Positions 23,312 to 45,732 of a stretch of 64,000 nt of DNA are shown piece after piece (position 1 is the stretch's first letter; every line of letters starts with the position of its first letter). The stretch comes from an uncultured Candidatus Saccharibacteria bacterium. Its GTDB lineage: Bacteria; Patescibacteriota; Minisyncoccia; Phycocordibacterales; CAIRYW01. The translations under genes and the position numbers were made by a program. Where the stretch lies: the NCBI GenBank assembly GCA_964386665.1, contig CAYLQP010000005.1, positions 177 to 64,176 on the forward strand. The letters run 5' to 3'. The notes under the pieces were generated by a model. The model was not told where the DNA came from. It searched no databases and worked only from the letters and a program-made list of their open reading frames with translations.

Positions 23312-26284
23312 CTAATTAAACAATGCCATCACCGCATCCCAAATATTCGCAAAAAATCCTTGTTGTTTTTTGACCATTGGATTTGATGCTGCAATACTTA
23401 ATCCAATTGAATTACTTTGTCCAAGCGGTCCGTTGAGGCTCATACGATAGTCTCCCTCCAACAAACCATAGTCAATTGGCCTGAAACTAAAATAATTACT
23501 ACTATAAGCAAGTTGTGTCACTGGTATAGTTTTTTGTACATTAGTATTAGTTTGTGAAATAGTTACTATATCTGCTCCATTAATTCGCTCTCCATTTACT
23601 ACAACAGTCTCTTCAAATGCAAAAGGCTCTTTACGTGATTCAAAGAGATAAGGAGATTTTTCACCAACAATCACAACCTCATTACTTACTAAAGGATTTT
23701 GCACAGTCTCTCTTATATCCCTCTGTGTTTCATCAAATCCATACAACGCTTGTAAGTACATATTGTAACGACCGCTAAATAACGCTCTTGTTGGTTGACT
23801 TGCTTTCAATTTCAAATGACCAGTTTGCCCATCTTTCAAACGATATGTATTCCCATTCACTTCAAATCCCTCAGAACTCTCAATCGTTGTGGCAACATAT
23901 CTGATGGTTTCTCCGTATTTCTCTCGATTATCTTTTCGTTCATACAGCGCTTGTCCTGCAAACTTATCAAACAAAACATCACCACCAAGTGCTGATACCA
24001 AGACCTCAAACCTTCCATCAAGAGACACTTCTTGCTTTGATTGGTCAAAAAGAACACTAGCAACAGCAGGTGTTTTTTCTTTTATACTGAACGATATCTT
24101 TTTTGAAGATGTAATATAAAACAGTGGACTATCTCCATACACATTTTTGTCACAAACACTTGAGACTCGAACAAAATATTGTCCATCAGATAAGTGACTA
24201 AGAGGAGTCCAATTGAATCCGTTAATTGCTTGCTCTGCACTTACCTCTTCTTCAATAGTAGACACAAAAGTGTTGTTTGCATCAAACAACTGCACATCAA
24301 ACTGTCCAATATTTGCTGACCCCCATTTCAAAGTAAAGCTTTTGTCACTGTTTGGACTTACAAGAATTCTTTTAAGACTTGGATTGGCAACACACTCAAA
24401 TAAAGAGGAATCTACTATCACTTCTTTTGATTTTAGAACTGGTAAATTCAAGAAGTTATATTCTGCACTCGAACGAAACGTACTCAATGACATTGAGTAA
24501 GCTAGATTTCTCAAAGAATCTCGTTGATCATACCCACGAAGAGTAAAAAACACAGAACCTGTTTGACCCTTTTTTATCAAATAAAAGGCACCCTCATCAG
24601 TAACATCACCTTTTATTCGATCAATACTACCTGGAATATCACTTATAAAAGTATTTTCTATATTTGTATCTGTTTTTCGCACAAACACAGAACCTCTAAA
24701 AGCACCTTGTTTAGGAATCTTCAAGTCTTGTTCAGGTGCTTCAAACTGAACTTGCAGTGGAGTTGCAAGTGAAATATCGTACCTTTCTGAACCTTGATTA
24801 TTAGTAACTTGATATCTGGTTTGTTCTGGAATGACTGTGACTTTTACTTTTGGAGCAGGTAATACATCTTGTTTGCAAAGATTTTGATCAAAATCATTTC
24901 TCATATTTTGATATCCAGCTTCAGTAAAAATAGGACTAAACCGAACGGGTACAAATGGTTGACCAAGACTGTCTGCAAATTCTTTGGTGTTGAAGTATTG
25001 ACCATACTCATAAAAAGAAAGTCTCATATACTTCTTGACAATCAATCTACTTCGATCAGAAACAGGGTTTGGGTATTGATCAATTGCAAAAAGTATCTTG
25101 TATAAGTTTTCATTTTTAGTAAACATTTCACGAGCCACTTTATAATACGCTTTTTGAAATTCAGCTTTTTTTGTTGCATCAAGTCTATCGATCGCATTTA
25201 CCAAAGGATAATATGGCAGAGGGGCTCTGCACTCCGTAAAAGAAAAATCAAAACCATACAATATACTCTTCCATTTATCTGATCCGGTAATCTGTCCGTA
25301 GTCTTCATTATGTAGTACCGAGCGATCTGTATCATTCACCAATGCTGTTACAAGAAAGTGTCGTATAGAATCCTCAGGATTAAAAGTAAGTGTTTTTGAT
25401 TCGTTTTTTGTATTAATAATCGCTACATTATCAAGTCTATTTGAACCTTTATTCCAATCTCCTTGCCACCCAGTATTATCACCATCCTGGATTAATCCGT
25501 CTTCAAGACCAAATTGTCGTACAAAAGGTTGCGCATCATCCAGCTCGTTGTCTCGTTGCATAAACATATAAGAATACTCTTTGTTAAGGTAAGCTTGGTC
25601 AGTATTGAGCATTTTGAGTTTAGCGAACGCAACCGGTTCAACAGAAGGTACACCAAGAAGTCTCATTGTTCGGTATACAACATACTCTCGAAACTGTGGT
25701 GTAAGCGCTCCCTTTAGACCAAAGAAAGGAGAATGACTGAGCGCATCATTAAATGCATCACAGTTTTCAACCACTCTTACCTTTTGGTATAAAGAAGACG
25801 TCTGTGAACCAAAGGTTGATATACCTGGGAAAAGTGGTTTTGGATTACCTTTTGAATCAAACTTATCGAACGACATATTAAACATTGGCGGTTTACATCC
25901 ATTTCGGGCGTGTCCCTTCTTTTCTATATCAACTTTCCAATCATCAAGTTTTTGTCCTGCTGGAGTATATTCAGTAAGTTTTGAATCAGTGTCCCCTGTT
26001 GAATTATCAATAGAAAACCCCTTCATATCGAGGGTAAATATTCGCTGTGGTAGTTTAGCGATCGCATAATTATTTACAGAAGCAGATTTGTTAGTAAGTA
26101 TCCAATAGTCATACGCATCAATCACTCCATCTTTATCAACATCATACGGCCTAAATGGCCCCGCTGTTTTTGCAAAGACAGAACTCGTGAGGACAAAAGC
26201 AAAGATAATGATAAGAGAAACAATGATTTTATTTTCAGTTTTGAGCACGTGAATAAAATCTTTATATATTTTTTTGGTATTCAT
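23312..26284 (-). CDS. Large secreted/anchored protein with an N-terminal dockerin-like Ca-binding motif
   Basis: N-terminal TM/signal segment. DVDKDGVIDAYDYWIL (dockerin/EF-hand-like). ~990 aa with no other recognised domain. The start is placed at MNTKKIYKD... Confidence 0.55.
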   Translation of the reverse strand: MNTKKIYKDFIHVLKTENKIIVSLIIIFAFVLTSSVFAKTAGPFRPYDVDKDGVIDAYDYWILTNKSASVNNYAIAKLPQRIFTLDMKGFSIDNSTGDTDSKLTEYTPAGQKLDDWKVDIEKKGHARNGCKPPMFNMSFDKFDSKGNPKPLFPGISTFGSQTSSLYQKVRVVENCDAFNDALSHSPFFGLKGALTPQFREYVVYRTMRLLGVPSVEPVAFAKLKMLNTDQAYLNKEYSYMFMQRDNELDDAQPFVRQFGLEDGLIQDGDNTGWQGDWNKGSNRLDNVAIINTKNESKTLTFNPEDSIRHFLVTALVNDTDRSVLHNEDYGQITGSDKWKSILYGFDFSFTECRAPLPYYPLVNAIDRLDATKKAEFQKAYYKVAREMFTKNENLYKILFAIDQYPNPVSDRSRLIVKKYMRLSFYEYGQYFNTKEFADSLGQPFVPVRFSPIFTEAGYQNMRNDFDQNLCKQDVLPAPKVKVTVIPEQTRYQVTNNQGSERYDISLATPLQVQFEAPEQDLKIPKQGAFRGSVFVRKTDTNIENTFISDIPGSIDRIKGDVTDEGAFYLIKKGQTGSVFFTLRGYDQRDSLRNLAYSMSLSTFRSSAEYNFLNLPVLKSKEVIVDSSLFECVANPSLKRILVSPNSDKSFTLKWGSANIGQFDVQLFDANNTFVSTIEEEVSAEQAINGFNWTPLSHLSDGQYFVRVSSVCDKNVYGDSPLFYITSSKKISFSIKEKTPAVASVLFDQSKQEVSLDGRFEVLVSALGGDVLFDKFAGQALYERKDNREKYGETIRYVATTIESSEGFEVNGNTYRLKDGQTGHLKLKASQPTRALFSGRYNMYLQALYGFDETQRDIRETVQNPLVSNEVVIVGEKSPYLFESRKEPFAFEETVVVNGERINGADIVTISQTNTNVQKTIPVTQLAYSSNYFSFRPIDYGLLEGDYRMSLNGPLGQSNSIGLSIAASNPMVKKQQGFFANIWDAVMALFN

Positions 26285-26320
26285 TAAAATAATTGTATAC
26301 CTAAATATAGAAATACAAAA

Positions 26321-26345
26321 CCCCCGCAAGCGAAGCTTGCGGGGG
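26321..26345. repeat. 25-nt GC-rich hairpin (cccccgcaagc-gaa-gcttgcggggg), copy 2 (inverted)
   Basis: Exact reverse complement of the hairpin at 23271-23295. Confidence 0.8.
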
Positions 26346-27056: not shown

Positions 27057-28394
27057 TTAAAGGCTATTTGTCAACTCATCAATTGACACTCTTTTTTGCT
27101 CTCCTGTGTCTCTGTCTCGCACAGTTACTGTATTGTTTTCTAAGGTGTCAAAGTCGATAGTGACACAGTGTGGTGTTCCTACTTCGTCTTGTCTTCGATA
27201 TCGCTTCCCTATGGTTCCTGATTCGTCATAAAGCACATTGCCAAACTGCTTTTTAAGCATACTGAACACTTCTCGAGACTTCTTCACGAGTTCTTCTCGG
27301 TTCTTGAGAAGTGGCAAAACAGCAACACGAATCGGAGCGACGTTTTTGTGGAACTTGAGATATACTCTCTCTTCTCCACCCATCTCGTCTTCGGTATAGG
27401 CATCAGAAAGGATTGCAAGGAGTGTGCGTCCTACTCCAAATGAAGGTTCAATTACGTGTGGAATGAACCTCTCTTTTGCCTCTTCATCAAAGTATGAAAG
27501 ATCTGTTTTTGATGCTTCGCTATGAGCCTTGAGATCAAAATCAGTTCGATATGCAAGTCCGTAAAGCTCTTTTTTACCAAACGGAAAATCAAATTCGAAA
27601 TCAATCGTCCGCTTCGAGTAGTGTGCTCGATCTGCGTCCCCTACTTCAAGCTCGTGGATATGTTCTTCTCTCAGTCCTATGTCTTTTGTAAATTCCCACA
27701 CTTCTTTTCTAAAATTTTCAAACGTCTCTTCCCAGTCTTTTGGATTTATGAAGTATTCTATTTCCATTTGTTCAAGCTCTCTAACTCGGAAGATAAAGTC
27801 TCGTGGAGCGATTTCGTTTCGAAATGCTTTTCCTATTTGTGCCATTCCAAACGGAAGTTTGGGATGGATAGAATCCATTACGTTTTTGAAGTTTACAAAC
27901 ATCCCCCCTGCGGTTTCTGGTCGTAGATACGAAACAGAAGAATCATCAGCGATAGCACCAATATGTGTTTGAAGCATCATATTGAATTGCCGAACATCAC
28001 CAAGAGGATTACCTTCGGGGCTTTTGATACCGTTTTCTTTTATGGCTTGATCCATTGCATCAAGACTCATTCCTTTGGGATCAATGTGTGCTTCTTCAAG
28101 GAGATGATCCGCACGATATCGTTTTTTTGTTTTGAGATCTTCAACTAATGGATCAGAAAATCCTGCAACGTGCCCACTCGCCTTCCATACGTTTTGGTTC
28201 ATAAGGATAGCAGCATCTATTCCATACATATCTTCTCGATCAGTCACAAATCGCTTCCACCACACATTTTCTATATTTTTTTTCAAGGCAACTCCAAGTG
28301 GTCCGTAGTCCCATGTTCCTGCAAGTCCTCCGTAGATTTCTGAACCTTGAAAGATAAACCCTCGTCTTTTGCAAAGGCTTATTATCTTTTCCAT
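27057..28394 (-). CDS. glyQS: Glycine--tRNA ligase (class II, alpha2 GlyQS type)
   Basis: N-terminus RRGFIFQGSEIYGGLAGTWDYGPLG; class II motifs; C-terminal anticodon-binding domain. The start is placed at the internal Met MEKIISLCKRRGF. Confidence 0.9.
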   Translation of the reverse strand: MEKIISLCKRRGFIFQGSEIYGGLAGTWDYGPLGVALKKNIENVWWKRFVTDREDMYGIDAAILMNQNVWKASGHVAGFSDPLVEDLKTKKRYRADHLLEEAHIDPKGMSLDAMDQAIKENGIKSPEGNPLGDVRQFNMMLQTHIGAIADDSSVSYLRPETAGGMFVNFKNVMDSIHPKLPFGMAQIGKAFRNEIAPRDFIFRVRELEQMEIEYFINPKDWEETFENFRKEVWEFTKDIGLREEHIHELEVGDADRAHYSKRTIDFEFDFPFGKKELYGLAYRTDFDLKAHSEASKTDLSYFDEEAKERFIPHVIEPSFGVGRTLLAILSDAYTEDEMGGEERVYLKFHKNVAPIRVAVLPLLKNREELVKKSREVFSMLKKQFGNVLYDESGTIGKRYRRQDEVGTPHCVTIDFDTLENNTVTVRDRDTGEQKRVSIDELTNSL

Positions 28395-28425
28395 TTTGTT
28401 TTCTTTGTTTTCCATAATGTATGTT

Positions 28426-30330
28426 TTATTTTGAGACCTTGTCTTTTCCAAATTCGAAGTTGGCTTCAGTTGGCACAGAAATAGTTGCTGGAATATTGAT
28501 CAATTTCAAGTCTGTCCCTGCAAATGTATCACGAGCTGAAAAAGTTGCAAGGTTGACGATGTCAGGTGCTTGTCCCACTTGTCCGAGACTTGGTGTAACA
28601 CCAAGCTTAAATGTCACCTTACGAAACGACCCTGCGGTTCCTCCCCCTGGGAGCACTTTGCCTATATCCCATATAATCTTTCGGGAATCTGGACTGTAAA
28701 TAATCTTTTCTGATGTCGGAGTTGTTTGCCCAAGCCAGTTCACATACGCAGGAAGTGTTGCTTCAATCTTGCTTTCTTCAAGAATGTTAAGTGAATTAGT
28801 CAACGTCCATGTGACTGCAAACTCAGTTGTGGTTTCAACCTTTGGTGGATAGGGACCGCTGTTTTTAAATGGACCTTCGAAATGGTTCACAATAGTGTTG
28901 AACCGTGCATCGCTTTGGATCTGAACTTTTTTGGTGATGGTTGATTTGATTATTTCTGGAACATTATCTTCTGAAAGTCGCTTCCCCGAAACGGTAATAT
29001 CAACTAACACTTCTTGGTTCTTAAGACCTGTTGCGTTCTTGGAGAAAGCGCTTAAAAGCGAATAGTTGAAGAAGACACTGTTTGATTTGCCTGATGCGAT
29101 AGAAGTAAGTTTTGGTGACTCAACATTTGTCCACACAAGCGTATCTGTACTTGCTCGATAGAATCCGCCGTCCGCGGCAACTGATTCTTTCATTATCATA
29201 TCGCCTTTGAGTTTTGCAACGATTTCAACATCGGTAACAGGGACCGCTAAGTTGTTTTGAAATGTGATTACATTGTCTACTGATTTTCCTGATTTGATTG
29301 ATTGTTCTCCTCTATCGACTGCAAGCCCAATACTGATAAAAGGTTTTTTGAGCATAATTGACTCTGCAAGATTTACAAATGGTTTGTCGATGACTGTTTC
29401 GTTTTTGGTGTCTTTGCCTCCGATTGTAAACCTAAATGTTTTTTCTTCATCTTCTGATCCTGTCAACATCCCTACTATTTTTATTTTTCGCTCCCCTTTG
29501 GGTTCAATATCTCCAAGGTTCCAAACTGACGTGTTAGTAAGTGCAACAGGAGTTGCAGACTTGAGCTCAAATCCAGCTGGGAATTGAGCTTGTAGCAACA
29601 AATCTTTTACTACTTCATTTGAGTTAGATGTGACAGTGACGTTTAAAACCAAGTCTTGATCTGCGTTTATTTCTTTGAGCATATCAACCTTTAAAGCAAC
29701 TGGCGAAGAACCAATGACAACATTATAAAGACCATCGTATGTGAATACCCCTCCTGAATTTTCGAGTCGGTATTCGAGCATATACTTTATTTCTGGACGA
29801 CTTCCCTCCTCATCAAAGACAAGTGCGTTGGTTTCCTTACGTACTGTTTGATGTGGTGCAATCGTACCAACCGGTATTCGTTCTCGTAGCAGATCAGATG
29901 TTTTATCGATTGGGTTTTTGGTACCTTTTGGATATTCAAGAAGCAAATCAGCAAGGATAAGTGGCGTATCGTTGTTGTTAGTGATTGTAATATCAAGTGG
30001 GAGAGGTTCTCCCGCGGCAACTGATACAGGACCAGTAATTGCAACCGCAATATTACTTGAAGAAATTACGTTGTCCCCCTTGAAATAAATAAAAGAAGCA
30101 AACAAGACTGAACCAACAAAGAAAACTGCCGAAACCATTAAAACAATCATAGAAAACCTTTTTGGGTTGGAAGTGTTTTGAGTCACTACCTCTGGTTCTT
30201 CCTCCCACTTTTCTTTCACTCCTGTTGCGTGTTTGTGTAGATCAAGAATCATCGTGTCTGGTAACTTGGCGTTTGGAGAGTAAAGTACTTGTTTCAAATC
30301 TTCTATTTTATTTTCTTCTTCTGTATTCAT
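28426..30330 (-). CDS. Hypothetical membrane-anchored protein with a large extracellular region (634 aa)
   Basis: ~70-aa cytoplasmic N-terminus, one TM helix (FSMIVLMVSAVFFVGSVLFASFIYF), then a long beta-rich extracellular part. Confidence 0.5.
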   Translation of the reverse strand: MNTEEENKIEDLKQVLYSPNAKLPDTMILDLHKHATGVKEKWEEEPEVVTQNTSNPKRFSMIVLMVSAVFFVGSVLFASFIYFKGDNVISSSNIAVAITGPVSVAAGEPLPLDITITNNNDTPLILADLLLEYPKGTKNPIDKTSDLLRERIPVGTIAPHQTVRKETNALVFDEEGSRPEIKYMLEYRLENSGGVFTYDGLYNVVIGSSPVALKVDMLKEINADQDLVLNVTVTSNSNEVVKDLLLQAQFPAGFELKSATPVALTNTSVWNLGDIEPKGERKIKIVGMLTGSEDEEKTFRFTIGGKDTKNETVIDKPFVNLAESIMLKKPFISIGLAVDRGEQSIKSGKSVDNVITFQNNLAVPVTDVEIVAKLKGDMIMKESVAADGGFYRASTDTLVWTNVESPKLTSIASGKSNSVFFNYSLLSAFSKNATGLKNQEVLVDITVSGKRLSEDNVPEIIKSTITKKVQIQSDARFNTIVNHFEGPFKNSGPYPPKVETTTEFAVTWTLTNSLNILEESKIEATLPAYVNWLGQTTPTSEKIIYSPDSRKIIWDIGKVLPGGGTAGSFRKVTFKLGVTPSLGQVGQAPDIVNLATFSARDTFAGTDLKLINIPATISVPTEANFEFGKDKVSK

Positions 30331-30369: not shown

Positions 30370-30942
30370 CTACAACTGACTTTCAGCAAGAGCAAGGTTG
30401 ATGAGTTTTATTAAATGTGGCTTATGTTCAAGCGCTTTGAGTACATCAGCATCAGTGATACTTCCAACAAGCGAGATGTTTTGATCGAACGTCTCCCCAT
30501 ATCCAAGAGCTGCCAAAATCCTCATAGCCCCAATGCATTCGATACATTCGAGAGTTTCTTTGGTGTATATCCGCCGATGTAAAAATACGTGAATTGCCTT
30601 TAGGGTTTCAAAAAGGGTTTCGTTTTTTTCTTCACCTCGGACAAGTTTTTGGATTAACAAAAGTGAGCGCAAGAAACTGGAACGGTTTTCTTTTGTTAGT
30701 TTCATTACTTCACTTGCAACTATATCAGTACCACGATAGATTGATCGTCCTTTTACTACCGTAATAAAACACTTATTTCCTACTTCCAAAAACCCCTTAA
30801 ACTTGGATCCACTATTACGAACCCCAGTAAATAAAACAGAAATAAGTCCGAAATCCTGTGTAAAAAAAGAAACTATCCTGTCGGCCTCTTTTGAATTTCG
30901 AATTGTTACGATAAATGCCTCTGTTGTATATTTTTCGTGCAT
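30370..30942 (-). CDS. recO: RecO-like DNA repair protein (short form, tentative)
   Basis: N-terminal OB-fold-like segment (EAFIVTIRNSKEADRIVSFFTQDFGLISVLFTGVR), 190 aa. Weak. Confidence 0.4.
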   Translation of the reverse strand: MHEKYTTEAFIVTIRNSKEADRIVSFFTQDFGLISVLFTGVRNSGSKFKGFLEVGNKCFITVVKGRSIYRGTDIVASEVMKLTKENRSSFLRSLLLIQKLVRGEEKNETLFETLKAIHVFLHRRIYTKETLECIECIGAMRILAALGYGETFDQNISLVGSITDADVLKALEHKPHLIKLINLALAESQL

Positions 30943-30970: not shown

Positions 30971-33900
30971 TTATTTTTGAATTTGAATTGAGACTATTTC
31001 TCCTTCAATTGTTATGGTTTCACTCGATACTTCTCCTACCACAAACATACGGGCGTTCACTGCCTTTGCTACGAGATCCTTGTAACCTTCTTTTTCGAAC
31101 ATTACTCGCAAAGCATCACTTACCCCAAGAGCTACTTCCACCACATCAGTAGGTGAGCATCCTGCTTCTTTTCGTTTGTCTTGGATGGCACGTACAAACT
31201 CTCGCAATAACCCCTCTTCTCGAAGATCTTCAGTAACAACAATATCGAGTTTGATTTCTCCTTCTATGTTTGCATCGACTAATACTTCTTTTACGTTTAC
31301 TTCATCGGCAATAATTTCGAGGTAAGCGTCAGGAATGTGTTTTTTAATCACAAGTGTTCGAAGTGGTTGTCTTACTTTTATGTTTGATTTATTTCGAGCT
31401 TCAAGAGCAAGTGTTACTGTGGTTCGGGCTTCTTTCATTTCTTCTTCGATACTATCACTTACACCAAGCACGGTTGGCCACTCCTCTAAATGCACACTTT
31501 CTTTATCATCCTTGTGTCGAAGCTTGAGAAACACACTTTCGGCAAAAAACGGTGCAAATGGTGCCATTACCTTTGACAGAGTTTTGAGCACAACATAAAG
31601 AGTTTGCTTGGCTTCTTTGTCCCCTTCTCGAATCCGATCTCGAGACCGTCTGAGATACCACGTCGAAAGGTCGTCGATAAAATCTCGCATCGCTCGCACT
31701 GGTTCAAGTAGTTTGTATGAATCCATTTGTGTTTCAACGGTGAGTACTAAAGAAGACAACCGTGAGAGAATCCATTTATCAAGTATTGAATGCGAAGTGA
31801 CTTCGGTTTCTTCTTCAAGAGAAACATCACGATATAATTCATAAAACGAAAGTACGTTAGCAAAAAGATTAAATACTTTTTTGCTTATTTCATCAACGGT
31901 TCGTTCGTCGAAGTTTTTGCTTTCTCCTGGTTGATTGACACTATACATCCACAGACGCAGTGTATCGACTCCATATTTGTTAATCATCTCAAACGGATTG
32001 ATCACGTTTCCAAGACTCTTTGACATTTTTTTGCCATCTTTGTCCAAGAGGTGCCCCAAACAAATAACGTTTTTGTAGGCATGACCCTTACCCATAAGAC
32101 ATCCAACAGCATGAAGTGTGTAGAACCACCCTCGTGTCTGATCGATTGCTTCAGAAATAAAGTCTGCTGGGAATAATTTCGTTTCAAGTCCAAGCCCATC
32201 GGCATTTTGGGCAAATGGCATTGCCCCACTATCAAACCACACGTCCATCACTTCTTTGACTCGAGTAAGCTTTTCTCCTGTGTCATCTATTAGTTCAACT
32301 TGATCAATAAATGGTTTGTGGAAGTCGAGTCTGTATTCTTCATCGTGTGGAAGTGGGATAAATTCAAATGGTGTGTAACTACCTACTTCAAGAAAAACAG
32401 CTCCTGGTTCGTAGATTGATTCAACCTCTTTGTCCTCCGCCCCTTGTGCAACGCACTTAGCAAGTTTCATTGGACCATCATGAGAGATGATAAGAATGTT
32501 TTTGCCAGAAAATGTTTTTTCAATCTCATAGAAGAAATCTCCTACTCGCTTCTTTACATCCATAAGCGTTTCGAGATCTTCGTGTTTGGTAAGTAAACGG
32601 TCCATATAATTTGGATATACTTTCGCAAATTCTTCCCAAGGCTTTCCTGAAAGGATGCCAAAGTACTCTTCTGCAAGTCGAGGATCCTCTATTGCTTTTA
32701 TATCTCCTAACACCTTCTTCACTTCTTCCATTGTTTCTCGAGTTCGAGTAAGTGGAGAATAGAAAATCAAATCAATGTTTTGATCCTTAAGTATCTGCGC
32801 ACTTTTCGTTGCATCTTGTCTTCCCTTTTCGGTAAGGTGATGCACTTCTTCGTTGTCAGAAGAAAGCACTCCTTTGATGTTATGCTCCGCCTCTCCGTGA
32901 CGCATCAAGAAATATTTGTTTCCAGATACCTTGGTATGTTGCTTGAGTGTAGTAAGCGAATCGATCACAACTCGTTTTGTCTTGGATTCGTTTTCCCAGA
33001 TTGGAAGTGGTGTTCCCCAATACCGTTCACGTGAAATTGCCCAGTCTTTGATTTCTCGAAGCCATTCACCAAACCGCCCTTCTTTGATATAGTCTGGCTC
33101 CCAGTTAATCTTTTGGTTTTCGGAAAGCAAGGTTTCTCGAAGACTCAACATTCTGATGTACCAAGAGTCTCGTGCAAAATACAAAAGCGGAGTTTTACAT
33201 CGCCAACAGTGAGGGTATGTATGTTTGATGTTTTCTTGTTTGAAGAAAAGATTTCGATGTTTGAGTTCATTGATGATGTCTACCGCAAGAGTTGGTTTAC
33301 CGTTTTCGTCTTTTTCTTTTGCGAATCTGCCCGCAAGAAAACCGCACCACCCCTTGAAGTTACCATCTTCTCCAACCGTGTGGACTTTTGGGAGGTTTTC
33401 TTTGGTTCCAAGCGCGAAGTCATCTGCTCCATACATTGGTGCAATATGAACAATACCCGTTCCATCGGTTGTGTTTACAAAATCAGCGGCATATACCTTA
33501 AATGCATTAGAGATTTTTTCTTGTTCTCCTTCCGGTGCGTTTTCTTTCAAGAACGGGAAAAGTGGTTCGTATTCAAGACCAACAAAATCAGTTCCTTTTA
33601 GTTCTTCAAGAATTTCAAAACCTTCTTCTAAAATAGAAACTCTTTCTTTTGCCAAAACAAGAGCATCTGAAGAATCTTTATATTTTATCTTTACATATTC
33701 AATATCCTTCCCCACCGCAAGAGCAACGTTCCCAGGAAGTGTCCAAGGAGTTGTCGTCCACGCAAGAATATATGTATTCTCTTGACCTACTACTTTAAAT
33801 TTCACATATACAGACAAATCTTTTACTTCTTCATATCCTTGCGCAAGCTCGTGAGATGAAAGTGCAGTTCCACATCGAGGACACCACGGCAACACCTTGT

Positions 33901-34429
33901 AATCCTTGTAGAGAAGTCCTTTCTTTTCAACTTCACCTACAACACCCCACAGGTTTTCGATATAAGAATTATGAAATGTGTAGTATGCGTTTTCCTGATC
34001 TACCCAGTATCCAATTCGTTTTGTAAATCTTCCCCAATCTTCAAGATACGTAAACACACTTTGTTTACATCTCTTGTTAAACTCTGCTACACCAAATTGT
34101 TCAATTTCTTTTTTGCTTTTAAGTCCGAGCTCCTTTTCTACTTGAAGCTCAACTGGCAGTCCGTGTGTGTCCCACCCGCCCTTTCGTCCAACTCGAAACC
34201 CTTGCATTGTCTTGTAACGAGGTAAACAATCTTTGAAACTTCGAGCCTCAAGATGATGAATCCCAGGACGACCGTTTGCAGTTGGAGGTCCTTCATAAAA
34301 CACAAAATCTCCCTTTGGGGATTCTTTTGTTAAGGTTTTGTGAAAGATATCTTTTTCTTCCCAAAAGGTAAGGATTCGCTCTTCTTCGAGCGCTCGGTCG
34401 CTTTTCTTTTCTACTTCTTCATTACTCAT
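30971..34429 (-). CDS. ileS: Isoleucine--tRNA ligase with an in-frame ~190-aa histidine-phosphatase (PGAM-like) domain insertion
   Basis: HIGH region (PPTANGRPGIHH), CP1 editing domain (WTTTPWTLPGN), KMSKS and a C-terminal Zn/anticodon region. The segment between WGTPLPIW and DVWFDSG is ~250 aa, against ~65 aa in E. coli, and contains FLMRHGEAEHN, an exact PROSITE PG_MUTASE match. Confidence 0.92.
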   Translation of the reverse strand: MSNEEVEKKSDRALEEERILTFWEEKDIFHKTLTKESPKGDFVFYEGPPTANGRPGIHHLEARSFKDCLPRYKTMQGFRVGRKGGWDTHGLPVELQVEKELGLKSKKEIEQFGVAEFNKRCKQSVFTYLEDWGRFTKRIGYWVDQENAYYTFHNSYIENLWGVVGEVEKKGLLYKDYKVLPWCPRCGTALSSHELAQGYEEVKDLSVYVKFKVVGQENTYILAWTTTPWTLPGNVALAVGKDIEYVKIKYKDSSDALVLAKERVSILEEGFEILEELKGTDFVGLEYEPLFPFLKENAPEGEQEKISNAFKVYAADFVNTTDGTGIVHIAPMYGADDFALGTKENLPKVHTVGEDGNFKGWCGFLAGRFAKEKDENGKPTLAVDIINELKHRNLFFKQENIKHTYPHCWRCKTPLLYFARDSWYIRMLSLRETLLSENQKINWEPDYIKEGRFGEWLREIKDWAISRERYWGTPLPIWENESKTKRVVIDSLTTLKQHTKVSGNKYFLMRHGEAEHNIKGVLSSDNEEVHHLTEKGRQDATKSAQILKDQNIDLIFYSPLTRTRETMEEVKKVLGDIKAIEDPRLAEEYFGILSGKPWEEFAKVYPNYMDRLLTKHEDLETLMDVKKRVGDFFYEIEKTFSGKNILIISHDGPMKLAKCVAQGAEDKEVESIYEPGAVFLEVGSYTPFEFIPLPHDEEYRLDFHKPFIDQVELIDDTGEKLTRVKEVMDVWFDSGAMPFAQNADGLGLETKLFPADFISEAIDQTRGWFYTLHAVGCLMGKGHAYKNVICLGHLLDKDGKKMSKSLGNVINPFEMINKYGVDTLRLWMYSVNQPGESKNFDERTVDEISKKVFNLFANVLSFYELYRDVSLEEETEVTSHSILDKWILSRLSSLVLTVETQMDSYKLLEPVRAMRDFIDDLSTWYLRRSRDRIREGDKEAKQTLYVVLKTLSKVMAPFAPFFAESVFLKLRHKDDKESVHLEEWPTVLGVSDSIEEEMKEARTTVTLALEARNKSNIKVRQPLRTLVIKKHIPDAYLEIIADEVNVKEVLVDANIEGEIKLDIVVTEDLREEGLLREFVRAIQDKRKEAGCSPTDVVEVALGVSDALRVMFEKEGYKDLVAKAVNARMFVVGEVSSETITIEGEIVSIQIQK

Positions 34430-35838: not shown

Positions 35839-36762
35839 TTATGAGTTTATTGGCTGCACCTCAATTTTCTGCATACACTCTTCCCCACAAAACATTCCGC
35901 CTTTTTCAATACAGCTTTCACACACAAGCATATGCTTGTGACAAACAGGATTTTGACAGTTGATGTACCTTTCGGTTTGTACTCCACACTTATCACACAT
36001 ACCAACGATTTCTCGGTCACCGCCGAAATCCATTACCACTCTATTATCAAACGTATACAAAGCTCCTTTGAAATCTTCTCCAGGAAACTTCTCCATATAA
36101 CAATGCATTCCTCCATCAAGTTGATATACATCTTTAAATCCTTTTTTTACCAGATATCCACTCATCTTTTCACATCGGACTCCTCCTGTACACACCGTGA
36201 GCACCTTCTTGTCTTTGAGATGTTCTATCTTCTCTACAATCTTTGGTAAGTCTCGTGAGTTTTCGAGTCCAGGGTCAATTGAGTTTTTGAAGTGTCCTAC
36301 CTTGAACTCATAACTGTTTCGCATATCAACCACGACGAAGTCTTCATTCTTCTCATACCATTTTTTGAGTTCATCTGGTGAAAGATGCTTACCTGTGATG
36401 ACATTTGGATTTACATCCTCATCTCCAAGTCGAACTGATACAATTTCGTCGCGTACTTTTATCTTGAGCTTTGGGAACGCTTCTCCGGTACCTGCACTTG
36501 TTTTGAATTTCACATCCTTGAAACATCCCATTCCCCGTGTATCTGGAGAAATATGTAATTTGGTAAGTGTTTCTATATACTGATTCACATCTTCAACTCT
36601 TCCCTCAAGAGTGCAATTGATTCCTTCCTTGGCGATAATAATACGTCCCTTGAAACCCTTCGCAACACAAAATCCCCGATGCCACATCGCGAGGTGTTCT
36701 GGATGTTCAATTGGAGTGTATTTATAAAAAAGTAATACAACGAAATCTTTGTTTGAGTTCAT
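35839..36762 (-). CDS. trhO: Rhodanese-domain protein, UPF0176/YceA family (tRNA uridine(34) hydroxylase TrhO)
   Basis: UPF0176 N-terminal domain, then a rhodanese domain with the active-site Cys (CTGGVRCEK), then a C-terminal Cys-rich tail. Confidence 0.8.
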   Translation of the reverse strand: MNSNKDFVVLLFYKYTPIEHPEHLAMWHRGFCVAKGFKGRIIIAKEGINCTLEGRVEDVNQYIETLTKLHISPDTRGMGCFKDVKFKTSAGTGEAFPKLKIKVRDEIVSVRLGDEDVNPNVITGKHLSPDELKKWYEKNEDFVVVDMRNSYEFKVGHFKNSIDPGLENSRDLPKIVEKIEHLKDKKVLTVCTGGVRCEKMSGYLVKKGFKDVYQLDGGMHCYMEKFPGEDFKGALYTFDNRVVMDFGGDREIVGMCDKCGVQTERYINCQNPVCHKHMLVCESCIEKGGMFCGEECMQKIEVQPINS

Positions 36763-37728: not shown

Positions 37729-39423
37729 TTACATCTTCTCAACTTCACTCATCCCAAGAAGCCAAAGACCCTTCTGTAGAGTCGTGATAACACAATCAAC
37801 TACTGCAGTTTTGTATGGTGAATACACATCATCAATATCAGCAATTTTTTCTTTTGCATAAAACGAGTTAAATTCGGCAGATAGTCTCGTGAGGTACTCT
37901 ACAACTTTTTGAGGCGCTTTCTCTTCGAAAGCCCTCAAGGCAATATCTTTGAACTTAACAAGCTCTTTTTCAATTCCAAAACATTTTGATATATCGATTT
38001 CTTTTTTAATCTGTAAGTCTTGTGCTTTTTTCTGTACCGCCTTTGCACGCACAAGTGTATAGAGAAGGTACGGACCAGAATCCCCTTCAAATGAAAGAGC
38101 CTTCTCTCGATCAAAGATAATATCTTTACCTGGCGACTGTTTTAGAATCGCGTATTTAATAGCGCTAATTGATACGTTAGTTGCGATTTCTTTCTTCTCA
38201 CCATCTGATATGTCACGTTCAGTCATTTTTGCGAGCACTTCCTTTTCAGTGTCCATAATCAACGATTCACCGGTAACAATATTTCCCTTTCGAGAACTCA
38301 TTTTTCCTTCGGTAAGCCGAAGCATTCCGTGAGAAATAAACTCGAGACTCTCTGCACTTTTTGGATCAATAAGTCCAAGAACACATTTGATCACTTTGAA
38401 ATAATCAGTAATCTCGTTTGCTGAAGTAACCACAGATATATCAGGGGCATATCTTCGAATCTTTTCTAAGGTATTTGCAAGCTCTTTTGCTTCATATGTG
38501 GGAAGTCCTTGCGAATTCAAAAACACTCTTGTATGCAAACCATATTTCTCGCCTTTAAACACAACTGCACCATCACTTTCTTCAAACACATCTTTCATAT
38601 GTGCTCTCACTATCTTTACCGCGTCATCTGATACTTCGCTTTCAAATATATGAGAATCAAACCGTGTACCAAGTTTCTTGTATATCCGATCAAAGTACGT
38701 CAGACTCCACTGTCTCCCTTTGTCATAATACACTTGCAAGTCTGCGTCTGACTTTTCAAATAATTTTTTGTTTATTTCTTTGATTTCTTCTTTTGCCTTT
38801 TCGTCATCTTCAAACGCGTTTACTCCAACAACATATGCGTCTCCCATAAACTTAATCTTGTCATCTTCGGAGTCTTCATCGTGAGGAAAGGAAGCTCTTG
38901 CTTGTTTCATTGCCCAAATTGTTTTTGCAACGTGAAGACCAATATCTCCTTGATAGCACACTCTCTTCACATCCGCTCCTTGAAACTGCGCTAGTCTTGA
39001 AAGAGACTCGCCGACTGCGTTTGCCATCAAGTGACCAATATGAAATGCCTTAAAAGGGTTTGGGTCCGTATATTCAAAAATTGTTTTCTTCCCTTCAAGG
39101 AGATTACCTTTTGAAATTCCTTCTTTTTTGATCTTTAATACTTCGCTTACAAAAAAACTTTCTTTAAAAGAAAAGTTAATAAACCCTGGACCCGCGATTT
39201 CAATCTTAAGTACTTCATCCGGTAGATTTGTCTGTAATTTATCAATAATCTTTTCTGCTAAAGCACGTGGCGAAAGCTTTAGGGCTTTCGCTCCCACAAG
39301 TGCTACATTTGTTGCTATATCTCCATGAGAAGTGTCTTCAGTGTATTCAACCACAAAGGAAGAATTGACAATATTAAACTTTGTAAGTATTTCTTGTATA
39401 TTTTGTTTTAACACATCTTTCAT
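37729..39423 (-). CDS. argS: Arginine--tRNA ligase
   Basis: 564 aa. N-terminal Arg_tRNA_synt_N region, class I core (HIGH-like FHIGHLM), and DALR anticodon-binding C-terminus. Confidence 0.92.
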   Translation of the reverse strand: MKDVLKQNIQEILTKFNIVNSSFVVEYTEDTSHGDIATNVALVGAKALKLSPRALAEKIIDKLQTNLPDEVLKIEIAGPGFINFSFKESFFVSEVLKIKKEGISKGNLLEGKKTIFEYTDPNPFKAFHIGHLMANAVGESLSRLAQFQGADVKRVCYQGDIGLHVAKTIWAMKQARASFPHDEDSEDDKIKFMGDAYVVGVNAFEDDEKAKEEIKEINKKLFEKSDADLQVYYDKGRQWSLTYFDRIYKKLGTRFDSHIFESEVSDDAVKIVRAHMKDVFEESDGAVVFKGEKYGLHTRVFLNSQGLPTYEAKELANTLEKIRRYAPDISVVTSANEITDYFKVIKCVLGLIDPKSAESLEFISHGMLRLTEGKMSSRKGNIVTGESLIMDTEKEVLAKMTERDISDGEKKEIATNVSISAIKYAILKQSPGKDIIFDREKALSFEGDSGPYLLYTLVRAKAVQKKAQDLQIKKEIDISKCFGIEKELVKFKDIALRAFEEKAPQKVVEYLTRLSAEFNSFYAKEKIADIDDVYSPYKTAVVDCVITTLQKGLWLLGMSEVEKM

Positions 39424-39748: not shown

Positions 39749-40624
39749 TCAATCATATTTTCTAGAATATAATAATAATGTCTTCTTGTCAATATTTAAT
39801 GATTCTGCAACATCACCAATTACTATATCGAGCATCCTTTCATCAGGAATCGCTCTAACTTTTTTATCCAATGATTCTTGAAGAACATATTCTTCTCCGT
39901 CCATTTCCCCCATATGCTTAGTCGATAATCCAAAATCAATTATCACTGGTTCACCACACTCATCAATCATTATATTTCCACCATGAAGATCTCTGTGTAC
40001 GTATTTAGCATTACGCATTTTTTGAAGTGCTTTTCGGATTTTTACAAAAAAAGTATATGGATCAAAATTTTCTGGGAAACCTTCCTGATCATCGATATAT
40101 TGATGAATCGATTTTCCTGCTATTTGCTCCATATATATAGCTTCGATATGATCTTTCACTCTTACCCCATCTCTTTCTTCTTCTAGATCCAAACTCATAA
40201 ACGCAGATAAACGAGGTACACGAATTACTCCGTTTAATAAATTTCTAATTTCCTCATGAATTCTTGCCTCTTCTTTCATAGAATTCGCGCCAGGTTGAGT
40301 TATTTTTTGCTCTTTCTGTGCACCAACAAATCTTTGATACATAGGATGAACTCTTTGTACTGAAACTCCTTCATCAAGCTCTATGGAAGGAAATACAGAA
40401 GAGTCCCTTTCTATTTTAAAACAAAAGCCCTCTGATCGATTTCCTGCAGAAACAACTCTTGCTGCCTGACCAACACCAAGAAGCAGCTCTTCTTCTGTTG
40501 ACCAACGACGAAGATTTTTAAGTAACCTTGCTTCAATTTTTCTTTGCTCCTTCTCCTCATGAAGCTCATAATCACTTCCTAATACCTCTTGAGTCGAATC
40601 ACTAAATTCAAATCTAATTACCAT
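39749..40624 (-). CDS. Protein-kinase-like protein (ePK / RIO / Bud32-like fold)
   Basis: Gly-rich loop LLGVGQAARVV, a catalytic loop YVHRDLHGGNIMID and DFG (IIDFGLS). 291 aa. Confidence 0.6.
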   Translation of the reverse strand: MVIRFEFSDSTQEVLGSDYELHEEKEQRKIEARLLKNLRRWSTEEELLLGVGQAARVVSAGNRSEGFCFKIERDSSVFPSIELDEGVSVQRVHPMYQRFVGAQKEQKITQPGANSMKEEARIHEEIRNLLNGVIRVPRLSAFMSLDLEEERDGVRVKDHIEAIYMEQIAGKSIHQYIDDQEGFPENFDPYTFFVKIRKALQKMRNAKYVHRDLHGGNIMIDECGEPVIIDFGLSTKHMGEMDGEEYVLQESLDKKVRAIPDERMLDIVIGDVAESLNIDKKTLLLYSRKYD

Positions 40625-44193: not shown

Positions 44194-45732
44194 TTAATTT
44201 GCAGACGACCGGGAGTTCCAGAATCTGCCAAGGGCGACGCGCGCAGTAGACTGCGCGCGCGACTCCTTATTGAGGAGCCACTGCACCGGGACAAAGCGCC
44301 GGTGTGCCCAGCCGTTCGCCGCCATAAAGGCGGCGGTGCCACGCTCGCAGTTGCCTGCAGCGTAGCTATCCGCGAGACAAGCGAGGACGGTAACGTTCGC
44401 CGGCAACTCCAGACCATTGGCTTTCGCCTCACGGTCTTGTGTTGCCCAGGCCTCGGCCGCAAGTCGGATGGCATACCTCTGCCAATACTTGGCAGATCCG
44501 CCGACTTTTTTTCCAGCATCCTCCTTAGGTCGGATTATTTCTAATCCGTTGCCCCAGGCACGGCTGACCTGGGACCATTCCGAGGTCTGGAGGATAGCCT
44601 CAGTTGGTTGCTCTGAAGGCAACCAACTGAGGTGATACGTCCGCCCTGTGGCAATATTCTTCACCACAGTCTGCCTGCGCAGACCAGTGCACCGCCGACG
44701 GTAAAAGTCGGCAACCAACCCCTCCACCACCTCGTGGCCGCGAAGTGTAGCTGAAGCCACAACAAACATTTTGACTCCGTCATCCTGCCGCATGGGCGGC
44801 AGAATGATTTGATCATAATGTTGCCCTTCCGCCATTCTCTGGCGGAAGAATTCCCGAGCCTCGGGCACCATCGCCCGCCACTGATCGTGGTGGAATCCGC
44901 GGAACCGAACGAATTCGGTGACGCGGAATTTTTCGATATGCACTCCAGTGAAGTGTGCGAGGGTCCGTAGGGCCAACCGCTGACCCAGCTTATTCCCGCG
45001 TTTTGGCCCGCGGGGAGCCGCAAGTTCACCCATCACAACCGTCCAAGGGACGGACTCAATCCCGAAGGGACCGAGAATTTCTTTCGCCCGGCAGAGGCCG
45101 GACGAAATCGCCCGGTATGCCCTGCCAGGTGTTTCCCACCTCTCCATCGAGGAGCCGGTGAGAAATGCGGTCATGTGACCGCAGTGATGATTGCGGGGCG
45201 AGTTCATTCCTCGCAACGGCGCTTTTGCGAGCGCCGTTGCGGCGCGGCGAAACCATGCGGGATGTTCCCCCACCAGTTCCCCCATGGCTTTCATCCAGCC
45301 TGCGGTGCGAGCGCACCGCTCCATGTCAGCGGCTGGCACTCTGTGCCAACCATGCCAGCACATGGAGCCTACAAACTGGCTGGGGCAGGTGCCCCAGTTC
45401 GATGGTAGGATAGGGGTTTCATTACCCCCCTCATATGTTGGTGGCCCTGATAGGGCTGCCAGTGCATCCTTGAGTGGCTTTTCGCCACTCGTGAGAATCC
45501 GCGCAATTACTGCACGGGTTGATGTGTCCCCCCAGCGGTTTGCACCACCGGGGAATTTATTTTTTTTACCAAACGCTCCTCTCGGGCGCACGAGGCGCCG
45601 ACAATCGGCCTCACGGCCGAGGAAGAAACGCAGGTCACGGATTGAAAACAATGAAAACTTCATTGTTTGATGACAGGTAACGTTACTGCAGACGGAAACT
45701 GTTTTTCGCAATATGCGAGTCGGATGTTTCAA
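44194..45732 (-). CDS. Hypothetical 512-aa protein in a ~60% GC insert (possible replication or transposition function; unassigned)
   Basis: An uninterrupted 1.5-kb ORF in GC-rich DNA, which is unlikely by chance. Rich in R, W, H and C. Contains AHFTGVHI and KYWQRY (YxxxY) about 160 aa apart, which weakly resembles HUH-nuclease motif order. No firm family assignment. Confidence 0.45.
   Translation of the reverse strand: MKHPTRILRKTVSVCSNVTCHQTMKFSLFSIRDLRFFLGREADCRRLVRPRGAFGKKNKFPGGANRWGDTSTRAVIARILTSGEKPLKDALAALSGPPTYEGGNETPILPSNWGTCPSQFVGSMCWHGWHRVPAADMERCARTAGWMKAMGELVGEHPAWFRRAATALAKAPLRGMNSPRNHHCGHMTAFLTGSSMERWETPGRAYRAISSGLCRAKEILGPFGIESVPWTVVMGELAAPRGPKRGNKLGQRLALRTLAHFTGVHIEKFRVTEFVRFRGFHHDQWRAMVPEAREFFRQRMAEGQHYDQIILPPMRQDDGVKMFVVASATLRGHEVVEGLVADFYRRRCTGLRRQTVVKNIATGRTYHLSWLPSEQPTEAILQTSEWSQVSRAWGNGLEIIRPKEDAGKKVGGSAKYWQRYAIRLAAEAWATQDREAKANGLELPANVTVLACLADSYAAGNCERGTAAFMAANGWAHRRFVPVQWLLNKESRAQSTARVALGRFWNSRSSAN

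Follow-up and report, generated by a model that had tools for sequence, protein, structure and literature searches.

A histidine phosphatase domain embedded in the isoleucyl-tRNA synthetase of Candidate Phyla Radiation bacteria

The stretch of DNA analyzed here, hereafter the window, comprises 64,000 nucleotides (nt) of contig CAYLQP010000005.1 (positions 177-64,176, forward strand), and all coordinates given below are window positions. Its minus strand carries ileS, the gene for an isoleucyl-tRNA synthetase (IleRS) that contains, between two conserved synthetase motifs, a complete domain of the histidine phosphatase superfamily. A reading of this locus from the sequence alone had pointed to about 190 extra amino acids (aa) between the motifs WGTPLPIW and DVWFDSG, at 32330..32920, and had interpreted them as an inserted phosphoglycerate mutase-like domain. 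We examined this protein by profile searches, structure prediction and comparison with related genomes of the Candidate Phyla Radiation (CPR). The gene and its parts, including the first of the connective peptides of the synthetase (CP1), are the following.

30971..34429, minus strand: ileS, encoding an isoleucyl-tRNA synthetase of type 2 in which a histidine phosphatase is embedded, 1152 aa (open reading frame (ORF), NCBIfam TIGR00392 and Foldseek)
32933..34429, minus strand: N-terminal IleRS part, residues 1-499, with the first Rossmann half, the CP1 editing domain, the WGTPLPIW strand and the first half of a zinc knuckle (aligns to residues 7-478 of Priestia megaterium IleRS2)
34253..34264, minus strand: GIHH, residues 56-59, a non-canonical GxHH form of the class I HIGH signature (read from the sequence)
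About 32979..32990 and 32277..32285, minus strand: N480/K483 (ENESK…) and D715/T717 (…IDDTG…), which replace the knuckle cysteines (sequence comparison)
32339..32932, minus strand: inserted segment, residues 500-697 (~198 aa), a complete branch-1 histidine phosphatase with two linkers (no counterpart in P. megaterium IleRS2 or in unfused CPR IleRS)
32420..32911, minus strand: Pfam domain His_Phos_1 (PF00300), residues 507-670 (E=4.8e-32; AlphaFold2; Foldseek 4ij6/1h2e)
32894..32902, minus strand: R510-H511-G512, catalytic RHG motif; H511 is the predicted phospho-acceptor (R and H invariant in 120 of 120 relatives)
32744..32746, minus strand: R562, second phosphate-binding arginine, in the SPLTR motif (invariant in 120 of 120 relatives)
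32669..32671, minus strand: E587, predicted proton donor, in the RLxE motif (E in 118 of 120 relatives, D in the other 2)
32480..32482, minus strand: H650, second catalytic histidine, in the IISHDG motif (invariant in 120 of 120 relatives)
30974..32338, minus strand: C-terminal IleRS part, residues 698-1152, with HKPFID and the second knuckle half, DVWFDSG, KMSKS, the anticodon-binding domain and the type 2 C-terminal domain, DUF5915 (Pfam; aligns to residues 483-852 of IleRS2)
32015..32029, minus strand: KMSKS loop, residues 801-805 (motif search; invariant in 120 of 120 relatives)

The host protein is recognized as an IleRS by the NCBIfam ileS model TIGR00392, with 894.1 bits against a cut-off of 621.4 and the match divided by the insert into two stretches, and Pfam assigns tRNA-synt_1, Anticodon_1 and DUF5915 to the remainder of the protein outside the insert. 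The best Foldseek matches of the synthetase core are the IleRS2 structures 8c8v/8c9d and 1ile, with target-normalised template modelling (TM) scores of 0.81-0.91. With IleRS2 of P. megaterium (8c8v) and Thermus thermophilus (1ile), the window protein shares the catalytic core, CP1, KMSKS, and the anticodon-binding and type 2 C-terminal domains, and the type 2 organization of the C-terminus is apparent from both the Pfam (Anticodon_1 and DUF5915) and the Foldseek results. Among the matches listed, all of the 120 relatives (54-85% identity, 1104-1229 aa) combine PF00133 with PF00300. In the alignment of relatives, the CP1 editing motif WTTTPWT (224-230) is invariant, as are G323, G325, V327, H328, D336 and D337 of the CP1 GTGxVH…DD region. 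Judging by the retention of these editing motifs and of KMSKS across the relatives, the host synthetase looks functional. The HIGH-type signature is conserved in the 120 fused relatives, where position 56 is occupied by G in 107 and by A in 12; the G/AxHH variant, which the window protein shares with mupirocin-hyper-resistant IleRS2, has been tied to mupirocin hyper-resistance in that enzyme type (PMC10485003). The 64-kb window contains no second ileS, and no insert is present in its other synthetases, namely, MetRS, ArgRS and one class II enzyme.

The borders of the insert are well defined by comparison with homologs. P. megaterium IleRS2 aligns to residues 9-499 and 698-1054 of the window protein (E=1e-223), with 4 residues where the latter has ~198, and unfused CPR orthologs have 6-12 residues at this position, so that the insert can be assigned to residues ~500-697, in agreement with the span originally proposed. 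WGTPLPIW occupies residues 471-478 and DVWFDSG residues 729-735, and the equivalent spacing in type 2 enzymes without the insert is ~56 aa; the junction sequences are …KQHTKVSGNKYF… and …PLPHDEEYRLDFHKP…. In the junction alignment, the insertion point falls in the distal loop of a small CxxC…CxC zinc knuckle, between the WGTPLPIW strand and HRPYID/DVWFDSG, and, from the order of elements described for the yeast IleRS, this knuckle is probably the connective peptide CP3. All four knuckle cysteines are lost in the window protein, a further difference from IleRS2, as well as in 84 of the 120 relatives, and are kept in the other 36; the inserted domain may have made zinc binding dispensable. Given that the insert aligns end to end with free-standing histidine phosphatases of ~190 aa, what is embedded is a whole enzyme, not a fragment: the branch-1 histidine phosphatase proper accounts for ~185 aa, inserted in frame. 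The claim that this is a domain insertion, as opposed to a frameshift or an intein, held up as well. The ORF is continuous, the IleRS motifs on either side are intact, no shift in GC content marks the insert, and the same architecture is found in at least 473 species genomes, which argues against a frameshift or a chimera; an intein was rejected because there is no Pfam Hint/intein match at E<=0.01 and there are no Cys/Ser…His-Asn splice junctions.

The identity of the inserted domain is clear at the superfamily level. Pfam His_Phos_1 matches the insert with 111.6 bits (gathering threshold 21.7; E=4.8e-32; profile positions 2-167 of 194). The sequence-only reading had started from the segment FLMRHGEAEHN (507-517), which fits the PROSITE phosphoglycerate mutase pattern [LIVM]-x-R-H-G-[EQ]-x-{Y}-x-N. 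Across all six translated frames of the window this pattern has a single match (LMRHGEAEHN, 508-517), as against 0.005 matches per shuffled window, and the profile match excludes chance on independent grounds. The two downstream elements that were also read as parts of a phosphatase, YSPLTRTRET (557-566) and IISHDGPMK (647-655), contain the invariant R562 and H650; the full branch-1 catalytic set is present (R510, H511, R562, E587 and H650); N517 is kept in 115 of the 120 relatives. We predicted the structure of the full-length protein with AlphaFold2 from a 60-sequence alignment and that of the isolated insert separately. For the full protein, the mean predicted local distance difference test score (pLDDT) is 86 and the predicted TM score (pTM) is 0.75; the insert, with pLDDT ~90-96 and a pTM of 0.86 in isolation, forms an independent alpha/beta domain. 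In Foldseek searches, the isolated insert superimposes on PspA (4ij6), PhoE (1h2e), the riboflavin-pathway HFP and GpgP with TM ~0.77-0.78 and a root mean square deviation of 2.2-2.4 Å (E=3e-15 for 4ij6/1h2e), and the longer mutases match its fold less well than these compact phosphatases. Hydrogenobacter thermophilus PspA (4ij5/4ij6) and Geobacillus PhoE (1h2e/1ebb) have the same fold, a similar size and the same R-H…R…E…H set as the insert, but are only ~26% identical to it and are free-standing, whereas the insert is embedded in another enzyme. We regard it as practically certain that the insert is an independently folded domain and, considering the fold, the catalytic set and the selection described below, it is very probably a catalytically competent phosphatase.

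None of the specific activities known in this superfamily could be assigned to the insert because every NCBIfam model scores far under its cut-off. This applies to dPGM (78.5-79.3 bits against 225 for NF038349 and 36.9 against 81.7 for TIGR01258), PspA (65-69 against 350), the alpha-ribazole phosphatase CobC (73-77 against 162.9), the phosphohistidine phosphatase SixA (42-46 against 74.5) and GpmB, all of which were therefore rejected.

For the survey of related CPR genomes, one genome per GTDB species was scanned, and the junction and insert were matched over their full length in at least 473 species-level genomes. By the depositors' labels, which are used here for all taxon names, these belong to Nomurabacteria, Taylorbacteria, Zambryskibacteria, Paceibacterota, Minisyncoccia, Parcubacteria and 'uncultured Saccharibacteria'; an insert-bearing IleRS is thus common to Paceibacteria-type CPR bacteria rather than rare. 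The architecture occurs on contigs of up to 1.6 Mb, and a protein identical to the window IleRS is on record from a 65-kb contig. Mean pairwise identity among the relatives is ~40% for the insert and 70-75% for the catalytic core. In the comparison with the closest relative (locus L096, 85% aa identity, synonymous divergence dS ~0.6-0.7), the ratio of nonsynonymous to synonymous substitution rates, dN/dS, is 0.12-0.15 for the insert (0.12 for the His_Phos_1 domain) and 0.14 for the N-terminal core. The insert is under purifying selection as strong as that on the synthetase core, a pattern that would be expected of an active enzyme and not of a decaying passenger or a pseudo-enzyme. At one locus from a distant lineage that keeps the zinc cysteines (L083, 3448..7074), the insert-bearing ileS is broken into three ORFs (517, 344 and 333 aa), most likely through indel errors in the long-read assembly and not because the gene is really split.

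Phosphatase domains have entered IleRS in a second CPR lineage as well, one labeled Gracilibacteria, Peregrinibacteria and Peribacteria, in which the IleRS has DCWFES in place of DVWFDSG. In these Gracilibacteria-type enzymes, His_Phos domains are found at three sites and in up to 4 copies per protein. Site A is the loop used in the window protein, site B lies just after DxWFxSG…A, and site C is located between the helices downstream of KMSKS and the anticodon-binding domain, immediately before the latter. Sites B and C are both occupied in a protein of 1419 aa (P0161) that represents a cluster of six members, on contigs of up to 1.06 Mb, and sites A and B in P0154; tandem pairs occupy site A in P0178 and P0202, four copies are present in P0140, and P0246 likewise belongs to the enzymes with 2-4 domains. 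The R, H, R, E and H residues are kept in all 26 His_Phos copies that we compared, across all insertion sites. Copies at equivalent sites cluster across proteins, that is, they are orthologous, and hence the duplications are old and maintained.

Other domains are also embedded in the loops of the Gracilibacteria-type IleRS. In P0353, a non-homologous HAD phosphatase, with sub-threshold matches to the pyrophosphatase PpaX and to nucleotidases, is found at site B without any His_Phos domain. Further embedded domains are GNAT, combined with His_Phos in some of these proteins, a Ser-hydrolase, DUF559, an IS200-like Y1 transposase (Y1_Tnp) and a P-loop kinase-like domain (AAA_18/AAA_33); together with the HAD phosphatase, these are hosted by P0353, P0354, P0378, P0343, P0293, P0305 and P0179. 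CPR IleRS appears to be a preferred target of in-frame domain insertion. For the P-loop kinase-like domain, the best match among solved structures is the kinase domain of Pnkp1, which belongs to an RNA-repair complex of bacteria; the E-value is 1e-5 with a single sequence and 1e-6 with a profile built from five sequences.

Free-standing relatives of the insert and the gene neighborhoods of ileS add a third type of association. Around ileS, the genes of the window that bear on this comparison are as follows.

30370..30942, minus strand: recO-like gene, downstream anchor of the conserved cluster (Pfam RecO_N)
35839..36762, minus strand: UPF0176/rhodanese protein of the TrhO-like tRNA U34 hydroxylase family, between argS and ileS (same place in L096)
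37729..39423, minus strand: argS, encoding ArgRS, upstream anchor of the conserved cluster (Pfam; synteny in L081, L084, L086, L088, L089, L090, L094 and L096)
39749..40624, minus strand: 291-aa ORF with weak protein-kinase, RIO and ABC1-like matches, directly upstream of argS (sequence matches)

The free-standing phosphatases closest to the insert are 37-45% identical to it, and eight of them were traced to contigs. In seven of these eight cases, the phosphatase gene immediately follows argS and precedes an ileS without the insert, with 0-3 genes between the latter two (L081, L084, L086, L088, L089, L090 and L094); in L084, argS, the phosphatase gene and ileS are separated by intergenic gaps of 2 nt. 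The insert-less IleRS (927-997 aa) fall into two divergent types, with ~53% and ~38% identity to the window enzyme. In the unfused loci, SmpB, IF3, L35, L20 and NUDIX genes lie upstream of the argS cluster, and ileS is usually followed by one small ORF of ~100 aa, recO and the gene for a DUF11/CLIPPER protein; in the fused locus L096, recO is directly downstream of ileS. The window and L096 have a common backbone of argS, DoxX, the TrhO-like gene, a membrane protein, the insert-bearing ileS, recO, a DUF11 protein and a class II synthetase. Neither the window nor the ±6 kb flanks of 80 fused loci contain a separate His_Phos gene, and within ~6 kb the fused and free-standing forms are mutually exclusive in the 80 fused loci, 9 unfused loci and the window. 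The best 150 representatives of 50%-identity clusters that match the insert consist of 92 IleRS-embedded domains, 53 free-standing proteins and 5 short fragments of unclear context, and none of these 150 is linked to another synthetase. The phosphatase and ileS are thus associated in three ways, as operon neighbors, as a fusion and through repeated capture, and we lean, by a narrow measure, toward the view that the phosphatase is functionally coupled to IleRS.

The kinase-like ORF upstream of argS was rejected as a partner because the related loci examined do not share it in synteny. Two of the unfused loci have additional genes. In L086 (8618..10055), bAvd and reverse transcriptase (RVT_1) genes, the hallmarks of diversity-generating retroelements, lie between the free-standing phosphatase and ileS, and toxin genes of the HicA and HigB/ParE types adjoin argS in L086 and L088.

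As to the number of insertion events at site A, the inserts at this site have the linker motifs SGNKYF… and …PxPHxxxxxxD-H[KR]P in common, which favors a single event. The neighbor-joining trees have modest support: in that of the IleRS core, the unfused L086 and L089 fall within the fused group (68% bootstrap), and in that of His_Phos all site A inserts are grouped (42% support).

What could a phosphatase do in an IleRS? By analogy with the superfamily, the insert would be an active phosphomonoesterase operating through a phospho-His511 intermediate. We propose, speculatively and as the leading explanation among those considered, that it might free the acceptor end of tRNA(Ile), or a closely similar nucleotide substrate, of a blocking phosphate, and that the tethered synthetase would then charge the deblocked tRNA, such that an end-healing step would be built into IleRS; the blocking group could be a 2'/3'-phosphate left after ribotoxin cleavage or the remnant of a toxin-added pyrophosphate. 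Such a substrate, on a nucleotide or a tRNA end, had already been guessed from the sequence, and the circumstantial evidence collected here makes it a tentative suggestion at most. It is favored because the association is specific to a tRNA-charging enzyme, because an unrelated phosphatase fold (HAD) can take the same place, because some relatives pair the phosphatase with a Pnkp-like kinase, and because phosphates at the CCA end are a documented block to aminoacylation, employed as a mechanism by toxins (PMC11559606). The pairing of kinase and phosphatase in some relatives corresponds to the composition of polynucleotide kinase-phosphatases (Pnkp). In its full form, the proposal is that CPR bacteria have built RNA end-healing or de-blocking into IleRS, where it would remove acceptor-end phosphates left by ribotoxins or added by toxSAS-type toxins from tRNA(Ile), with the phosphatase supplemented by a kinase or replaced by a HAD domain in some lineages; we give this a probability of roughly one in five. 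If true, the same polypeptide would repair and recharge a tRNA, which would represent a previously unknown class of synthetase-coupled tRNA repair or counter-defense.

Several considerations weigh against the end-healing proposal. Small molecules are the substrates of the closest characterized relatives of the insert (phosphoserine for PspA and a broad range for PhoE, with CobC and the riboflavin-pathway HFP as further examples), and we know of no branch-1 histidine phosphatase that acts as an RNA 3'-phosphatase. The P-loop kinase-like domain is absent from the window IleRS in the Pfam scan and is found only in some Gracilibacteria-type relatives, and its match to Pnkp1 is only marginally ahead of those to generic P-loop kinases (32 vs 30 vs 26 bits). 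Furthermore, a need for such an activity in IleRS alone would be hard to explain, and, given the GNAT, Ser-hydrolase, DUF559 and IS200-like domains in the same loops of the Gracilibacteria-type enzymes, IleRS may simply be a permissive host for insertions.

The main alternative, which we consider possible, is that the insert is an ordinary small-molecule phosphatase, similar to PhoE or PspA or even the cell's phosphoglycerate mutase, that in a streamlined genome moved from a neighboring gene into a permissive surface loop of ileS and is expressed in common with IleRS, with no mechanistic tie to aminoacylation. The substrates of the closest characterized relatives fit this explanation, as do the adjacency of the ancestral gene to ileS, which makes a local rearrangement a plausible source, the unrelated domains (GNAT, Ser-hydrolase, DUF559 and Y1_Tnp) tolerated in the IleRS loops of another CPR lineage, and the faster evolution of the insert compared to the catalytic core (40% vs 70-75% mean pairwise identity). 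It sits less well with the recurrence of capture at three sites and, among the best 150 representatives, only in IleRS, with tandem copies that are old and catalytically intact without exception, with the presence, at a comparable site, of a HAD phosphatase that is not homologous, and with a tight argS/ileS operon conserved across two divergent IleRS types; nor does the insert come anywhere near the NCBIfam equivalog cut-offs for dPGM, PspA, CobC and SixA. Conservation of the catalytic residues makes it very improbable that the domain is a pseudo-enzyme, a fold that lacks catalysis and is kept to provide spacing or a surface for binding tRNA or protein in place of the zinc knuckle. The loss of the knuckle cysteines in the window protein and 84 of 120 relatives would be compatible with such a stabilizing role, but the five catalytic residues are conserved in the 120 relatives (with D in place of E587 in 2) and in every copy, while the rest of the domain is ~40% identical, and loss of such residues is the normal course for pseudo-enzymes. 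An artifact, be it a chimeric assembly, an unrecognized frameshift or an intein, can be practically dismissed considering the continuous ORF, the uniform GC content, the presence in at least 473 species genomes and on contigs of up to 1.6 Mb, and the lack of a Hint match or splice junctions.

Two further explanations would tie the phosphatase to IleRS in other ways. The phosphatase, along with the GNAT, esterase and kinase-like domains of the relatives, might defend IleRS, either by reversing phosphorylation by kinase toxins or by inactivating phosphorylated or aminoacyl-adenylate-like inhibitors. The GxHH signature of the host, with its link to mupirocin hyper-resistance, would imply strong antibiotic selection on this IleRS lineage, and the accessory classes (acetyltransferase, serine hydrolase, kinase and phosphatase) are typical of resistance enzymes. 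SixA, Sts and PGAM5 are branch-1 histidine phosphatases that act on proteins, and the insert has a weak match to SixA. That match, however, is sub-threshold (42-46 bits against 74.5), the window's kinase-like gene upstream of argS has no conserved counterpart in related loci, and to our knowledge neither a phosphorylated IleRS inhibitor nor an IleRS-targeting kinase toxin has been described, so that we consider protection unlikely. Alternatively, the tethered phosphatase could hydrolyze a product of the synthetase, AMP or pyrophosphate (the latter being atypical for the fold), and thereby pull amino acid activation forward or adjust the local nucleotide pool. AMP is a phosphomonoester made at the IleRS active site, PhoE-type enzymes are broad-specificity phosphatases, and the sub-threshold matches of the P0353 HAD domain to PpaX and nucleotidases would agree with this role. 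Nevertheless, every synthetase yields AMP and pyrophosphate, yet among the best 150 representatives the domain is embedded only in IleRS; CPR bacteria rely on nucleotide salvage, which makes the destruction of AMP costly; and we know of no branch-1 histidine phosphatase that functions as a pyrophosphatase. Product removal therefore strikes us as quite improbable.

Aminoacyl-tRNA synthetases are among the most conserved and best-studied enzymes, and added catalytic domains, such as editing domains, have always been biologically informative. A synthetase with an added catalytic module is not categorically new, and a curated precedent for an IleRS with an embedded accessory enzyme exists in NF040702 (ileS_w_GNAT); the window protein differs in that it has no Pfam match to an acetyltransferase and scores 313 bits against a cut-off of 1999. 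There is no curated model for the combination of IleRS and His_Phos in NCBIfam. Branch-1 histidine phosphatases are covalently joined to a partner enzyme in 6-phosphofructo-2-kinase/fructose-2,6-bisphosphatase and in the mycobacterial RNase H/acid phosphatase (NF005567) as well, but these fusions are end-to-end, whereas the IleRS insert is internal, in a surface loop of a class I synthetase; the window protein reaches 70 bits against a cut-off of 326 with NF005567 and is likewise sub-threshold for 6-phosphofructo-2-kinase/fructose-2,6-bisphosphatase. In polynucleotide kinase-phosphatases, the phosphatase is of the HAD or metallophosphoesterase fold, as opposed to His_Phos in IleRS. The likeness to T4 Pnkp and bacterial Pnkp1 (Pnkp1-Rnl-Hen1, PDB 4xrp, PMC4411300) is therefore a possible functional analogy only, through the pairing of the phosphatase with a Pnkp1-like kinase in some relatives.

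The sequence-only reading had considered the architecture undescribed. This stands for the literature searched, where we found no description of an IleRS with a histidine phosphatase, including the 2023 paper on IleRS2 (PMC10485003) and a 2026 preprint on IleRS domain evolution; it does not stand for public databases, where such proteins are abundant and some are already labeled automatically. One relative has been named 'isoleucyl-tRNA synthetase/phosphohistidine phosphatase SixA/…GNAT' by the JGI pipeline. Of practical relevance for annotation, the names that pipelines now give to many of these proteins are 'class I tRNA ligase family protein', 'hypothetical protein' or 'GNAT family N-acetyltransferase'. 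Because the insert is kept across hundreds of CPR species, has been captured repeatedly, is mirrored by a HAD phosphatase and was preceded by an operon partner, our results argue that, within a major section of the bacterial tree that is still poorly understood, a dephosphorylation step is tied either to the formation of isoleucyl-tRNA or to IleRS as such. Its study might yield a new step of tRNA quality control or repair, a mechanism of resistance, or a principle behind the fusion of genes in minimal genomes.

Despite the four synthetase genes, ARAGORN detects no tRNA genes in the 64-kb window. Apart from ileS and argS, the synthetase genes and three large ORFs are located as follows.

18423..19865: metG-like synthetase gene
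27057..28451: class II synthetase gene
23312..26329, minus strand: ORF of 1005 aa (Pfam scan)
44194..45732, minus strand: ORF of 512 aa (Pfam scan)
48004..50766, minus strand: ORF of 920 aa (Pfam scan)

The two ORFs of 1005 and 512 aa have no Pfam match at E<=1e-5, and the 920-aa ORF has a weak match to GNAT at residues 708-803.

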